Origin: Minisyncoccota bacterium
Lineage (GTDB): Bacteria; Patescibacteriota; Minisyncoccia; Phycocordibacterales; UBA5272
Length of the DNA stretch: 64,000 nucleotides
Assembly (NCBI GenBank): GCA_041651055.1
Contig: JBAZJW010000001.1
Location: forward strand, 20,737-84,736
Reading direction: 5' to 3'
The notes under the pieces were generated by a model. It saw nothing but the letters and a program-made list of their open reading frames with translations. It searched no databases and was not told the origin of the DNA. This document shows positions 37,228-52,667 of the stretch, piece by piece (positions within the stretch are counted from its first letter, which is position 1; the number at the start of each line of letters is the position of its first letter). Position numbers and translations under genes: made by a program.

Positions 37228-37309
37228 GCCCGGGTGATGGAATGGTAGACATAGAGGACTTAAAATCCTCAGCGCGTTTGCGCGTGCGGGTTCGAGTCCC
37301 GCCCTGGGC
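37228..37309 (+). tRNA. tRNA-Leu(TAA), no encoded CCA; integration target
   Basis: Acceptor gcccggg/cctgggc, anticodon loop ctTAAaa, hairpin variable arm, T-loop ttcgagt. Confidence 0.85.
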
Positions 37310-38867
37310 ACAAGACAGGACAATCTGGTACGAAAGTATCAGATTTTCCTTTTTTAGCAGTACTTTTACGTGGTTCGAAATTATTTTGACTATCTATTTT
37401 CTGTTGAACCCTTTGAGCGAGTACTTCAACTGGCCTCTTTAATAATGACAACACTTTTTCATCTTTAAGAGTGATGTTCGAAAAAATATGAGATAAAAGA
37501 GTTCTTCTTTCTTCGGGTGTTCTTTTCTTATAGATTTCCTCCGCTCGAAAAGCAAGATCCAAAATGTTTAACCATATTTCAAAATACCTAGTTTCTATAT
37601 TTTTAATTTTTGATATTTGCTCCTGAATACCTTGCTGCTCTTTGTTAATTTCGGTCTGTCTCTTTTCCCATGTGTCGGTACTAATCTTCTGGTCTAATCT
37701 ATCGTTATACAGTATGTCTAGACGGCTCTGTAATTGAATGTAGCGAGCGTTTAGTGTCTTGAGGGTGTTTTCTTTGTATTCTATTTCTTGAATATGGTTT
37801 GCCTTAATTTTCTCCTTTATACGTTCGGCTTCTTCAGGTTTTATATTCTTAAAGAAATTAAAAACTCCTAAAAGTTGCTCTTCAATTTTTGATTCTGGGG
37901 TATATGGTTTCTGTGTACACTCGTTATAGTGATTACAATGATAGTAGACAATACCCTTCTGTATTTCTGCGGTAATCGTACCATTGCACTCGCCACACTT
38001 CATCATTTTCTTAAATTGAAAATTATGTTTACTGTATGAAGGAGTAAGTTTTCCTCTTTTCACTGATTGTGCTTTATCAAATAGTTCTTTTGTAATTATC
38101 GGCTCATGTTTTGCTTCTGGGTAAAGTACATCATTCCAGACCATCGCACCATAATAAAAAGGTTCATTGAGAATCCTCTCTATTCTACTTTTTGCTAACT
38201 TTCTACCTGCACGAGTTCTGAAGCCCTCTTTATATAATTGCTGACGTACTGCTTCCATTGAGTGATTACTACTAGAATACAACTCAAATGCTTTCTTTAT
38301 AAAAGGAGCAACCGATGTATCGATGACATGTGTCTTGTGGCCTTTATCTCCAACTGTTTGGTAACCAAGAGGGGATCTGGTTGGTAACCATCCTTGAGCA
38401 AGTTTCTCTGCTTGCCCCTTGCGTACCTCTTCAGAAAGATTTGAAATATATTTCTTGGCTAGGACAATTTCAATATCCCAACGAAACTTTTCATCAGATT
38501 TAGCGTTTTTATGAATAATAAGGTTCTGTTTAACAAAGTGTATTTTTCTTTGATCATCTTCATCGATCCAATCGTTTGCAACTACTGCTTCTTTCAAATT
38601 ACGCGTAAGGCGGTCTACTTTTTCTACTATAAGGTTTTTAACCTTGTTTTTATCTATATATTCCATCATTTCAGCAAAAACTTTTCTCTGTTTTGTTCCG
38701 CTTGCGCTTTCAGCGACAGAGAATACTTTGTTAACTGTAAAACCCTTGCGATTCGCATATTCTTTTAATAACTTCTCTTGTGAAGGTAGTGAGTACCCGG
38801 TCTCTTCTTGTTCCTTTGTTGAAACTCTACAATAGAGAACTGAGTTATTAGTATCAATGTTTTTCAT
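37269..38867 (-). CDS. Large serine recombinase (integrase); C-terminus overlaps the tRNA-Leu(TAA) 3' end
   Basis: Resolvase-type N-terminal domain with catalytic [10 protein letters not shown], recombinase and zinc-ribbon regions, coiled-coil tail. Confidence 0.85.
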
Positions 38868-38914
38868 ATATTTATTTTATCATTTTTAGTTTGATTGTCG
38901 TACAACGATATTCT

Positions 38915-39508
38915 CTAAAATGGAATGTCGTCTAGGTTTACATTTCCAAAGGATTGGTCTACTAGTTCTGTTTTTAAGGTTTTTCCAATTTCTTTATATC
39001 TTTTTCTTGCTTCATCAGGAGTTAATTCTTTTGCTGGCGCTATGTTGGTTTTCTTACATTGGAATATTTTTATATTAGTATTCTTAATATTAGTATTCTT
39101 ACTGTGACTTTCTGTCACTTGGTATTTGTTGTTTTTGTCACTTGGTGATGCTTTTTTTGTCACACGGCCAGGTGACTTTTTGTCACCTGGTTGATACCAA
39201 GAATCTCTATTTGTAAGAACGTAACCATAATTAGCCCAATGGCCACCCCGTCTTCTTTTTTCCATAATGACTAGATTGTATTTTTCTAAAAGATGTATAT
39301 TTCTAATTATTGTTCGTTTTGATATATTAAGTTCTTGAGCAAGGAGGTCATGTGTTGGCCATGCGTAACTTTCAAGATTAGAGTGCCTTTTTAAGCAAAT
39401 GTAAATTGCTAATGCCACATGACCAATTTTAGGTGAATATTCGTCAATTAAAATATTATCAACTGAAAACCACTGACCACTTTTAGTATTGTTGTTCAAC
39501 TCTTCCAT
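38915..39508 (-). CDS. Winged-HTH DNA-binding protein (putative replication initiator or regulator of the element)
   Basis: ELNISKRTIIRNIHLLEKYNLV HTH; basic C-terminus. Confidence 0.5.
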   Translation of the reverse strand: MEELNNNTKSGQWFSVDNILIDEYSPKIGHVALAIYICLKRHSNLESYAWPTHDLLAQELNISKRTIIRNIHLLEKYNLVIMEKRRRGGHWANYGYVLTNRDSWYQPGDKKSPGRVTKKASPSDKNNKYQVTESHSKNTNIKNTNIKIFQCKKTNIAPAKELTPDEARKRYKEIGKTLKTELVDQSFGNVNLDDIPF

Positions 39509-39512
39509 GGTT

Positions 39513-39704
39513 TCATTTTGAGAAATTAGAACCCAATTCCGACACCCTAGGAGTTGAAACTAAGATGTCGGAATTGACCTCCGATTTTTCTTTTTTATGA
39601 TCCTCATAATCAAAACGAGCAAGTAAATCAAAAAAGGACGACAAGTTATCTATGTCTTCATTAGTTAGGTTCAACTCTTTTTGTAATATCAACTCTTTAC
39701 TCAT
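39513..39704 (-). CDS. Hypothetical small acidic protein
   Basis: 63-aa ORF 5 nt upstream of the next gene (operon). Confidence 0.4.
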   Translation of the reverse strand: MSKELILQKELNLTNEDIDNLSSFFDLLARFDYEDHKKEKSEVNSDILVSTPRVSELGSNFSK

Positions 39705-39811
39705 TACATAAGTAAAACAAATAAAAAATCTTCGGTAACTTATGCTTCTCTTATGATAAAAAGAAAATAAAACCCTGATTTATAAGGATTTATTTTGCTT
39801 GATCAAGAGTA

Positions 39812-40557
39812 TTATTTTAATACTTTTACTGTAAATGATTTATTTAAGAAATACCCAACTTTATTGTTAGAATCTATAACATTTTCTTTTATTCCTAGCC
39901 GTCTTTTTGCAATAATATTAAATTGAGAAATACCAACAGACAGATTCCCTTCTTTTTGGTCTAATTTAGACATGAGTTCCTCTCCGCTTAGTGGTCCATG
40001 AGTATGGAGAAGTTCAAGATATTGTTCTCTTTTTCCTTTAACAGGGTAAACCTTTTTGTTTAATTCATTTTTTAAACCTATATTCGAGAGAGTAAGGATA
40101 ACTTTTTTATTATTTTTAACTGGCCGTAACTTATTTTTTAATTCTAGGTTAACCACTCTTAAGAAAGATACTTTTTCTTTCACAGATGAAATAATGTTTT
40201 GTAACATCCTTATTCCAGATTCATCTGCATATATTAAACCATCTTCATCTTTAAAGAAAGTGACTATCGGGACAGTGTTATTCAATCTTTGTTCTAATGA
40301 GTTAAGAGTATGAACACGTACCATATCTGGTTCTGAAAGAAAATCATCAGCACTCTTTTCATTTACCTTTTTAAGTACTTTATATGTATCTAAAACCCAG
40401 TTACCATAGAAACGTTCAGCAATCTCAAAGTTTTTCGTAGTTGGATTGTTGATTGCGTTTTGGGTTATGTTTATTACTAATTTAGAATCAGATATATAAC
40501 TGTTTATTACATCTATACTTGAAGATTTTATTTTATTTTTTGAGGTCAACTCTCTCA
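39812..40557 (-). CDS. Hypothetical protein with C-terminal OmpR-type winged-helix DNA-binding domain
   Basis: Start MRELTSKNK; C-terminal ...LSGEELMSKL...VGISQFNIIAKRRLG resembles trans_reg_C. Confidence 0.5.
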
Positions 40558-51376: not shown

Positions 51377-52091
51377 AAAAAGTACCATTGAACTAGGAGA
51401 TATATCGTTTGATGTAATCCACAAGAATATCAAAAATGTGCACTTGAGCGTACACCCTCCACTCGGGAGAGTTACTATTTCTGCACCATTTCAAATGGAT
51501 ATAGAAACATTACGTCTCTTTAGTATTTCTAAACTTGGTTGGATACGAAGACAACAACTTAAACTTCAAAATCAGAAGAGAGAAACTGCACGTGATTATG
51601 TTAATCGCGAAAGTCATTACTATCTTGGACAAAGGTATTTATTAAAAGTTGTTGATGTAGAAACTGCGCAGAAAGTTGTTTTGAAACACAGCACTATTGA
51701 ACTTCATACACGAAAAAATGCAACAAAAAAACAAAAAGAGAATCTTTTACACGCTTGGTATAGACAACAACTAAGAGAAGTAACAACCCCTTATATTACA
51801 AAACTTGAAAAGAAGATGGGCATAAAGGTTAAAGAGGTTGGTATAAGAACAATGAAAACCAAATGGGGTACGTGTAACATTGAATCTAAAAGAGTGTGGC
51901 TCAATACAGAACTTGCAAAGAAATCAGTAGAGAGTATTGAATATGTTCTTGTTCACGAGATGGTTCACTTGCTAGAGAGAAACCATAACGAGAAGTTTAT
52001 TGCGTATATGGATAAGTTTTTACCAAAATGGAAACATCTCCGTACGGAACTAAATCGTTCCACTCTAGGCCATATTGACTGGGAATACTAG
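51366..52091 (+). CDS. DUF45/YgjP-like zinc metallopeptidase commonly linked to hsdR
   Basis: HEMVHLLERNH HExxH motif; overlaps the hsdR stop. Confidence 0.7.
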   Translation: MNTKKSTIELGDISFDVIHKNIKNVHLSVHPPLGRVTISAPFQMDIETLRLFSISKLGWIRRQQLKLQNQKRETARDYVNRESHYYLGQRYLLKVVDVETAQKVVLKHSTIELHTRKNATKKQKENLLHAWYRQQLREVTTPYITKLEKKMGIKVKEVGIRTMKTKWGTCNIESKRVWLNTELAKKSVESIEYVLVHEMVHLLERNHNEKFIAYMDKFLPKWKHLRTELNRSTLGHIDWEY

Positions 52092-52142
52092 TTATTGGCT
52101 ATTTTTATTTGTGCTTAAACTAAACTGGAGTAAACTGTCTAG

Positions 52143-52334
52143 ATGAGAAAATACTACGATGCTATTAGAGTTTGGATATACGTAAGAAATAAAAATAAGT
52201 TTTCTTTTGAAGATGTTATTGAGAACTGTATAGGAAAAGGATACATACGAACTGGGAATGCATTAGATGTCTTAATTAAACTAAATTATATAAAAAAGGA
52301 AAAAGGTATGCCTGTTAGATATACCAAGATATAG
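52143..52334 (+). CDS. Hypothetical small protein
   Basis: 63-aa ORF, Lys-rich. Confidence 0.35.
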   Translation: MRKYYDAIRVWIYVRNKNKFSFEDVIENCIGKGYIRTGNALDVLIKLNYIKKEKGMPVRYTKI

Positions 52335-52509
52335 CCAAAGATTACATATTTTCGTCTATTATTGCTTGCCGAACTTCATCCCACGTTCGGAGCAACTCTA
52401 ATGTTGCTCATGCTGTTATTAGACAAGAAGAGATTTGATTTCTTGAAGTGCGATTACTGGAAATGGGTATTCTTTGACCCAATCAATAGTTCGAAAATCG
52501 TCCGCTAGA

Positions 52510-52558
52510 GCGCACAAATTTAAAAATCTGACGAAAGTCAGTTTTTTAATTTGTGCTC
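52510..52558. terminator. Nested bidirectional terminator (outer gcacaaattt/aaatttgtgc, inner ctgac-gaaa-gtcag-tttttt)
   Basis: Two concentric perfect stems plus T-run. Confidence 0.7.
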
Positions 52559-52561
52559 AGG

Positions 52562-52667
52562 GAGCACATGAACTGCTTCATGTGCGTCGGGACTCGAATA
52601 GGGGTCGAGGAGTCTCCTGTTTTGTGTACTCATAAAACGAGACGAGGTGACCGAGTCCCGCCCTGGG
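52562..52667 (+). repeat. tRNA-linked hairpin element copy E3 with the same GCACATGAA-ctg-TTCATGTGC leader as E2; 3' arm contains the island attR core CGAGTCCCGCCCTGGG
   Basis: Outer stem CGGGACTCG/CGAGTCCCG, bulge AATAGG, GGGGTCG...GTGACC. Confidence 0.65.

Follow-up and report, generated by a model that had tools for sequence, protein, structure and literature searches.

The DNA considered here is a stretch of 64,000 nucleotides from a Minisyncoccota bacterium (Patescibacteriota), positions 20,737 to 84,736 of contig JBAZJW010000001.1 in assembly GCA_041651055.1, and is referred to as the window. It contains a mobile island that was inserted by a large serine integrase at the extreme 3′ end of a tRNA-Leu gene in this Patescibacteria genome. 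The tRNA-Leu(taa) gene is intact despite the insertion, and the features that define the two ends of the island are listed below.

37228-37310/11, plus strand: tRNA-Leu(taa), the integration target (ARAGORN; Rfam RF00005, 57.9 bits)
37269-38867, minus strand: open reading frame (ORF) of the large serine recombinase (LSR), integrated form, 532 amino acids (Pfam, PHROG, translation)
37293-37308, plus strand: left copy of a 16-bp repeat, spanning the 3′ strands of the acceptor and T stems of the tRNA and the 3′ half of its T loop
37308-37313: attL identity block GCACAA, common to attB, attP, attL and attR (attL and attR compared with empty sites and with the GAGC block of relatives at tRNA-Asn)
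37314-52517: integrated element, 15,204 bp with one GCACAA copy counted, 35.4% GC
37322-37355, plus strand: element-supplied terminator hairpin and T tract, now serving the tRNA (same layout in relatives)
52419-52511, minus strand: displaced recombinase 3′ exon, encoding ALADDFRTIDWVKEYPFPVIALQEIKSLLV and a stop codon, also the P arm of attP
52512-52517: attR identity block GCACAA
52513-52555, plus strand: native nested terminator of tRNA-Leu(taa), which abuts the tRNA in empty sites
52553-52675, plus strand: E3, a structured element cognate to tRNA-Leu(taa), outside the island, which holds the right repeat copy at 52652-52667

Residues 1-520 of the integrated LSR are encoded by the element and the last 12 codons are antisense to the 3′ end of the tRNA, in agreement with an earlier reading of the locus made without database searches (the sequence-only reading), which had described a minus-strand large serine recombinase abutting and overlapping the tRNA. 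Pfam assigns to it a Resolvase domain (PF00239, 4.9e-21), a Recombinase domain (PF07508, 1.4e-18) and a zinc ribbon (Zn_ribbon_recom, PF13408, 29.2 bits with a cutoff of 25.3), and residues 5-477 match the PHROG integrase family phrog_95 at 1.7e-75. The catalytic serine motif, YCRVSTKEQ, aligns with YTRVSTTNQ of the TP901-1 integrase, and the zinc-ribbon cysteines are invariant in the alignment of the LSR family. An AlphaFold2 model of the homolog P0118 is that of a canonical LSR, with helices 340-444 forming the long coiled coil within the zinc-ribbon domain. Pfam searches of the ORFs of the element revealed no tyrosine integrase (Phage_integrase domain).

The sequence-only reading had proposed a 15.4-kb element bounded by the two copies of the 16-bp repeat; the real ends are at 37314 and 52517. 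The left junction reads CCCTGGGCACAA followed by GACAGG and the right junction TAGAGCGCACAA followed by ATTTAA, with just GCACAA in common, such that attL equals attB up to GCACAA and attR equals attB from GCACAA on. The predicted unoccupied site, in which the tRNA ending in CCTGGGCACAA is joined to ATTTAAAAATCTG, was used as a 24-mer DNA query. This junction, CCTGGGCACAAATTTAAAAATCTG, was found exactly in five contigs. Three are from metagenomes, and the other two belong to GTDB genomes, one a metagenome-assembled genome (MAG) of Ca. Nomurabacteria and the other a MAG that bears the label Gracilibacteria. Each of the five has a terminator identical to window 52518-52555 directly after tRNA-Leu(taa), and in three of them (L008, L009 and L010) an E element, the tRNA-linked type of structure to which E3 belongs, comes after the terminator; it is absent from the tRNA-Leu(taa) locus of the other two (L006 and L007). 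The order at the empty sites with an E is tRNA, terminator, a GCACATGAA-type hairpin and E, and L008 also keeps the upstream synteny of the window (tRNA-Cys, tRNA-Lys and the DUF2238 gene). The empty site for which a search in related genomes had been suggested thus exists, and its arrangement bears out the suspicion that the element went in between the tRNA and its resident E element.

The composition of the island is also foreign to its host. Its GC content is 0.354, compared to 0.445 in the left flank, and its tetranucleotide distance from the host profile is 0.35-0.43, which is two to three times the host range of 0.13-0.22. An integrative element with a serine recombinase at tRNA-Leu(TAA), as had been proposed, is therefore supported by its domains, by empty sites and by composition, the last of these with the proviso that the right flank is itself AT-rich.

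A further line of evidence comes from the integrase gene, which is split by the integration event. When 37314 is joined to 52517 in silico to give a circle, the LSR ORF changes from 532 to 550 amino acids and ends in DCPVLC followed by ALADDFRTIDWVKEYPFPVIALQEIKSLLV and a stop codon. Integration cuts off the last 30 LSR codons and leaves this exon at the far end of the island. The tail reconstructed for the circular form is matched by that of P0118, a 548-amino-acid relative that is 55% identical to the LSR of the window and ends in ALADDFRTIDWVREYPFPTIALKEIRDLLIAT. P0118 is encoded on L016, a Logan contig of 6,979 bp with a terminal overlap of 30 bp (k-1), indicating that this contig is a circle. 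Tails of the attP type are present in 10 of the 120 best homologs, and the five contigs with such tails that were fetched hold no tRNA genes. In four integrated relatives (L011, L013, L015 and L018) the tail exon is intact, in the correct orientation and 6.6-9.2 kb from the LSR gene, thereby marking the far ends of their elements. The dN/dS of the tail (NG86, 27 codons, seven sequences) ranges from 0.03 to 0.21 with a median of 0.12, synonymous sites being saturated in the remaining pairs, which indicates constraint on the protein and not just on a DNA binding site. The circular homolog, the tRNA-less contigs, the intact exons and the low dN/dS together show that the tail is not a chance read-through. 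The attP core thus lies inside the integrase gene, and integration swaps the C-terminus of the LSR, removing a conserved module. A literature search for attP within a serine integrase gene found no precedent, and we know of no other serine-integrase ORF that contains an attP core.

In the AlphaFold2 model of P0118 a disordered basic linker (492-512) is followed by a small helical tail (513-547), the pLDDT of which is just 56-67, a confidence that is too weak for inferring a docking site. It is possible, although we consider it rather doubtful, that this clade makes two LSRs, a 550-amino-acid circle form and a tail-less integrated form, with the C-terminal helical module (DDFRTxxW...) acting as an integration-state switch. 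If true, such a switch might license integration from the free form only, or alter excision competence or stability once integrated, and would constitute a directionality or regulatory mechanism that has not been described for serine integrases. Serine integrases are major tools of genome engineering and the control of their directionality is an active question; a natural clade with attP in the integrase ORF provides a testable case of integration-state control.

Two of the relatives hold additional tail exons. The reading frame of a second, distant LSR (27% identical) at L015 1898-3481 continues into the first element's displaced tail exon (...STPNW, then LALTDDFRTIDWAKEYPYPTISLGEIKALVC and a stop codon). 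This implies a tandem pair of elements at tRNA-Asn, and an att site placed within the ORF of the distant LSR in the same way. A different tail-like exon, LLPILDKFRTLDWVNIRKELMF, of the P0023 type, is found at L013 2743-2808, some 500 nt past the far end of the first element, and may be a remnant of another family element in tandem.

The tRNA targeting of this LSR is a property of its clade. More than 1,300 homologs were found at E <1e-20, and those with source names are from Patescibacteria (Paceibacterota, Pacebacteria), while identity to any LSR in phage and plasmid collections is at most 30%. In each of the four relatives on long contigs (L011, L013, L015 and L018), which are 75-78% identical, the 3′ end of the ORF lies over the 3′ end of tRNA-Asn(gtt). 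Most C-termini among the best 120 homologs are of the integrated type: 30 read into the T-loop antisense, giving DSN or GSN signatures, and 66 more have ends of the LL[RP]G type, which correspond to the tRNA-Asn acceptor strand read in antisense. The layout of attL is shared, consisting of the T-loop RTCC, 18 nt (19 in L015), GGAC(A) or GGAT and an element-carried terminator hairpin; in the window this hairpin is part of the P′ arm and is preceded by the conserved AGGACA motif (37318-37323). For the tRNA-Asn elements, the identity between attL and attR is limited to GAGC. The survey of Mageeney et al. (2020; PMC7192596), in which serine integrases used a t(m)RNA gene in 14 of 297 cases, held such targeting to be unreported before and in need of proof. 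The clade described here comprises serine integrases that systematically use tRNA 3′ ends, and half of attB is formed by the conserved 3′ strand that runs through T loop, T stem and acceptor stem. The use of tRNA-Asn by LSRs that are up to 78% identical, and of tRNA-Leu in the window, represents a natural retargeting that is open to study. The existence of a large LSR clade specialised on tRNA 3′ ends is, together with the in-ORF attP, what is new here; the island as such is an ordinary defence-carrying integrative element.

Relatives of the LSR in IMG/VR were set aside as a guide to the close clade, being at most 44% identical and including a single tRNA-adjacent case (L035, with tRNA-Asp in the same geometry). 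In L018 the intact tRNA-Asn is preceded, at 4717-4890, by a 5′ fragment of tRNA-Asn (TTCCGTGGTAGCGGAGCGG...), with some 130 nt of apparently structured sequence following the fragment. A link to the group I introns that have been reported from tRNA-Asn genes of Patescibacteria (PMC13011429) is possible.

The LSR is predicted to recombine attP with an attB to which tRNA-Leu(taa) contributes its 3′ end and the terminator its start. The reconstructed attP junction of the window element is CGTCCGCTAGAGCGCACAAGACAGGACAATC and the predicted attB junction is CCCTGGGCACAAATTTAAAAATC. Strand exchange would occur within GCAC, tRNA positions 71-74, as the GAGC of the tRNA-Asn elements and GCAC(AA) share the same register. 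A weak dyad symmetry at the attP core, GTCC-N18-GGAC with 11 of 22 matches, points to GC, the first two core bases, as a candidate crossover dinucleotide. A scan of the reconstructed attP and attB found no dyad symmetry centred on the attB core.

These observations are best explained by a 15,204-bp integrative element (37314-52517) that is mobilised by its own LSR at tRNA-Leu(taa), with attP in the LSR gene and with the 16-bp repeat coming from E3, an explanation in which we have high confidence. In the circular form the LSR gene would span attP and encode 550 amino acids. The LSR would then join attP with attB at the 3′ end of tRNA-Leu(taa) through an exchange within GCAC, leaving the tRNA unharmed and providing it with a new trailer and the element-carried terminator hairpin. 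As a consequence, the native terminator and E element would be displaced 15.2 kb downstream and the last 30 LSR codons moved to the far end, such that the integrated gene closes with 12 tRNA-antisense codons. The element would be a small one, able to exist as a replicating circle and carrying exchangeable defence cargo; that the circle replicates is suggested by the initiator-like gene and the circular relative.

Several observations weigh against this explanation. The right flank from 52.5 to 55 kb has a GC content of 0.381, and composition alone cannot place the right boundary. Exact-protein look-ups with both flanking genes and the LSR returned just occupied copies of the same strain, from the source assembly and one other sample; neither a circle of this element nor an empty site in the same strain was found, and the empty sites are from related but distinct lineages, in which DUF2238 is 57% identical. 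The proposal to seek an excised circle was thus answered for a 55%-identical relative, which is on a circular contig and has an attP-type tail, and not for this element itself. A palindromic GC core is unusual for serine integrases, the need for a non-palindromic core that is customary in these enzymes favours CA, and no recombination directionality factor was identified in the element. The fact that the empty sites are from other lineages and not from the same strain would also fit a block that is ancestral and non-mobile, and that the "empty" relatives have lost through deletion. Such a history requires a base-exact deletion in several lineages, regenerating a perfect terminator palindrome. 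It is further contradicted by the foreign composition of the island, by the presence of close LSR relatives at a different tRNA (Asn) with different cargo, and by the circular relative together with the exact closure of the split ORF on circularisation. An ancestral block is consequently very improbable, and integration by the LSR is the preferred history.

The 16-bp repeat that had been taken to bound the element, CGAGTCCCGCCCTGGG, is exact, and both copies are present, at 37293-37308 and 52652-52667. These are its only exact occurrences in the window; no further copies were found in the window with up to two mismatches allowed, and none in 100 shuffles. The right copy is the tRNA-mimicking 3′ strand inside E3. 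All five tRNAs of the window have the same 3′ neighbourhood, a long nested terminator palindrome followed by an E of about 120-150 nt. Each E starts with a 9-bp hairpin with a CTGC loop, the stem of which covaries between copies. Sequence that is antisense to the T loop and T stem of the tRNA comes next, and two invariant motifs, GAATAGGG and then GTGACC, follow with a variable hairpin between them. The last part reproduces, in sense orientation, the T-stem and acceptor-stem 3′ strands of the tRNA together with the 3′ half of its T loop.

The consensus fold of E, derived from an alignment of 11 copies, is a three-way junction with compensatory changes in 14 of 23 pairs, in which the acceptor and T-stem 3′ strand of the cognate tRNA recurs in the closing and the long stem. 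Compared to shuffled sequences, four of the five complete copies, E3 included, fold with z scores of -5.7 to -7.1, and the copy at tRNA-Leu(tag) folds near the shuffled level (z -1.5). Five copies, for the five tRNAs, are all that a covariance model detects in the window:

24038-24161
35780-35902, minus strand
36371-36486
52553-52675 (E3)
55175-55326

Each E best matches the 3′ strand of its own tRNA when the five window tRNAs are compared, and E3 agrees with tRNA-Leu(taa) at 15 of 16 positions and with the other window tRNAs at 10 or fewer. In L008, the T stem of tRNA-Leu(taa) has CTCGC instead of CCCGC, and the same change is present in the E of L008. The spacing between E and tRNA is 60-110 nt for four of the copies and 15.2 kb for E3. 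Rfam searches, at the gathering threshold for the whole window and permissively for 52050-52900, returned just tRNAs and chance matches, placing E3 and the att region in no described family. A literature search on tRNA-like elements in candidate phyla radiation bacteria turned up nothing useful.

The repeat could nevertheless be taken as a true att duplication, with the element running from 37309 to 52667 and including the terminator and the body of E3. Consistent with this idea, the repeat is exact and far beyond chance, and repeats of tRNA 3′ fragments are a hallmark of tyrosine-integrase islands (the Islander concept, PMC4383910). The element has no tyrosine integrase, however, and the empty sites in L008, L009 and L010 already hold the terminator and an E with the tRNA mimic. 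The other tRNAs of the window each have an E with a cognate mimic and no island, the islands of relatives lack such a repeat, and the LSR ORF is continuous only via 52517 and not via 52651. A repeat-bounded island therefore has next to no credence in our assessment. Since every window tRNA has its own E with a cognate 3′-strand mimic, the repeat belongs to E3; it is not an att duplication, and the E3 copy predates integration. The remark in the sequence-only reading that a 16-bp repeat is odd for a serine integrase was to the point: attL and attR share just GCACAA, and the repeat is part of E3. Neither the E core motif nor the tRNA 3′ repeat was found within 10 kb of the islands in L011, L013 and L015, and the covariance model had no significant match in these loci, with a lone chance-level hit in L013 (12.7 bits, E 0.15). 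The relatives' islands are thus free of both the tRNA-fragment repeat and E, which indicates that LSR integration does not itself make a long repeat.

The possibility that E3 is a remnant of this LSR family was rejected, since E-like sequence is missing from the island's right end and no E was found next to the islands of relatives. E may represent an RNA that resembles a tRNA, a secondary site of the attB kind, or a miniature integrated element with tRNA 3′ repeats at its ends. Whatever its nature, a direct repeat of a tRNA fragment is not always an att scar, and at this locus its source is a distinct family of structured elements linked to tRNAs, which appears to be undescribed. A second conserved module is found after E3 (52676-52828) and after the E of tRNA-Cys (35640-35780, minus strand). 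Its core is GAGCGRCGGCTGATTAGTAAAnCATGyCATGAG, with an exact 15-mer at 52716-52730 and 35753-35767, and the Cys copy is followed by another tRNA-Cys 3′ mimic. The second module and the extra mimic suggest tandem arrays of tRNA-linked modules.

Between the two ends of the island, the genes are arranged as follows.

38915-39508, minus strand: HTH_36 protein resembling DnaD/O-type replication initiators (Pfam, PHROGs)
39513-39704, minus strand: 63-amino-acid ORF without a Pfam match, recurring in L011, L013, L015, L016, L018 and L019 (blastp)
39812-40693, minus strand: ORF of about 290 amino acids without family assignment
41580-41942, minus strand: ORF of 120 amino acids downstream of the ATPase, without family assignment
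41997-44189, minus strand: HerA/FtsK-superfamily ATPase, 730 amino acids (DUF87, TrwB_AAD_bind), with hydrophobic N-terminal segments
44642-51376, plus strand: type I restriction-modification (R-M) operon (hsdM 44642-47032, hsdS 47026-48321, hsdR 48308-51376)
51366-52091, plus strand: YgjP-like (DUF45) metallopeptidase (Pfam PF01863, 1.1e-55)
52143-52334, plus strand: 63-amino-acid ORF without a family match, in the right end of the island and immediately inward of the displaced exon

Domain searches agree with the cargo that had been read from the sequence, consisting of a winged helix-turn-helix protein, a membrane ATPase, hsdM-hsdS-hsdR and a DUF45 protease. The nested terminator said to follow the DUF45 gene is present at 52513-52555; it does not follow directly, as about 430 nt that hold a 63-amino-acid ORF (52143-52334) and the displaced recombinase 3′ exon lie in between. 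Circular or attP-form contigs have a 78-amino-acid ORF in the position equivalent to 52143-52334 (L016 6041-6277, L019 11605-11841), and no similarity between these ORFs and that of the window was detected.

Across eight related loci the LSR is present in all eight and the 63-amino-acid ORF at 39513-39704 in six, with no other gene being widespread. This recurrence makes the small ORF a candidate directionality factor or regulator. The HTH_36 gene also occurs in L011, and the ATPase in L018 (66% identity), where a PIF1 helicase stands instead of the R-M genes. C5-methylase/NgoFVII-type R-M genes, or SLFN/AlbA or KAP NTPase genes, are found in other relatives. The R-M assignment rests on TIGR00497 (274.6 bits, cutoff 242.75), on two stretches of Methylase_S, indicative of an HsdS with two target recognition domains, on TIGR00348 (533.5 bits, cutoff 284.55), and on full-length matches to the PADLOC models MTase_I and REase_I. 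The backbone is formed by the LSR, the 63-amino-acid ORF, the HTH_36 protein and a membrane-anchored HerA/FtsK-type ATPase, and the cargo by the type I R-M system and the YgjP peptidase. The mobile elements of Patescibacteria are poorly known, and the loci compared here define a family of defence-gene shuttles, small elements (6.6-15.2 kb) that integrate and probably also replicate.

The ATPase best resembles DNA translocases of the HerA, CedD and VirB4 type and has a membrane-anchor region; a role of this protein in DNA transfer is plausible. Pfam, NCBIfam and PHROGs searches of the element ORFs found no relaxase or type IV secretion system genes, save a short TrwB_AAD_bind/VirB4-like P-loop match in the ATPase. 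A MADS-type or Sir2/HerA-type defence system was considered and rejected: the HerA models of PADLOC match only the C-terminal ATPase part and mad8 is weak, and hsdM, which also matches mad2, scores far higher with full-length type I models.

Some features could speak for a prophage or a phage satellite instead of a conjugative or plasmid-like island. The LSR matches a PHROG integrase family, the ATPase has a weak match to a terminase large-subunit PHROG (8.6e-13), the related element in L018 has a weak Terminase_2 match, and IMG/VR contigs hold LSR relatives that are more distant. However, neither PHROGs nor Pfam gave a gene for capsid, portal, tail or lysis among the ORFs tested, the elements are just 6.6-15.2 kb in size, and the best matches of the membrane-anchored ATPase are to translocases of the HerA, CedD and VirB4 type. 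A phage origin is accordingly unlikely, if somewhat less so than the alternatives discussed above.

Outside the island, the window differs from L008 between 52680 and 58070. In L008 the E is followed directly by rbfA-infB, which in the window starts at 58.07 kb. The extra 5.4 kb hold an AAA_33 kinase, GFA, GrpB, an RluA-like pseudouridine synthase, tRNA-Leu(tag) with its E, a sigma factor and others, and in L010 the RluA gene and tRNA-Leu(tag) are at another place. This segment, which includes the AT-rich 52.5-55 kb part, may be another accessory insertion or rearrangement. Short intergenic repeats of the types GTTAGGGGTTAACAGTTAGG and ACGAAGAACGAAGAACG recur across the window, at 17787-17824, 18516-18553, 22200-22262, 26422-26461, 61417-61444, 62128-62155 and 63445-63484.

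The LSR described here has the same three domains and the catalytic serine in an RVST motif as known large serine integrases, such as phiC31, Bxb1, A118, TP901-1, SprA of SPbeta, CcrAB of SCCmec and XisF. As in those systems, the int gene adjoins att and the att partners share little sequence, 6 bp in the window element and 4 bp in its relatives. It differs from them in its target, a tRNA 3′ end, and in the location of the attP core in the ORF, with the consequence that the last 30 residues are replaced. An attP inside a gene of the element that is split or truncated on integration is known from SSV1-type archaeal integrases and from the mycobacteriophages BPs and Brujita, where it underlies integration-dependent immunity. 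The likeness may be taken as one of principle, in that the element's own gene is cut because attP lies in coding sequence. Those systems use tyrosine integrases, however; SSV1 int is divided into two large parts and BPs loses part of its repressor, whereas here a serine integrase loses a small C-terminal helical module. Classical tRNA islands of the Islander/TIGER type are similar in their position at a tRNA gene, the restored 3′ region, defence cargo of foreign composition and the tRNA-proximal integrase gene. They have a tyrosine integrase and a displaced tRNA fragment repeat, whereas the enzyme here is a serine recombinase and the apparent fragment is the independent E3. A functional likeness exists with the actinomycete integrative and conjugative elements (AICEs; int, rep and the FtsK-like TraB), which are also small and combine an integrase, an initiator-like protein and one membrane-anchored ATPase of the FtsK/HerA superfamily. 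AICEs mostly use tyrosine integrases and have TraB, in contrast to the HerA/DUF87-like ATPase of this element, the host of which is a Patescibacterium.

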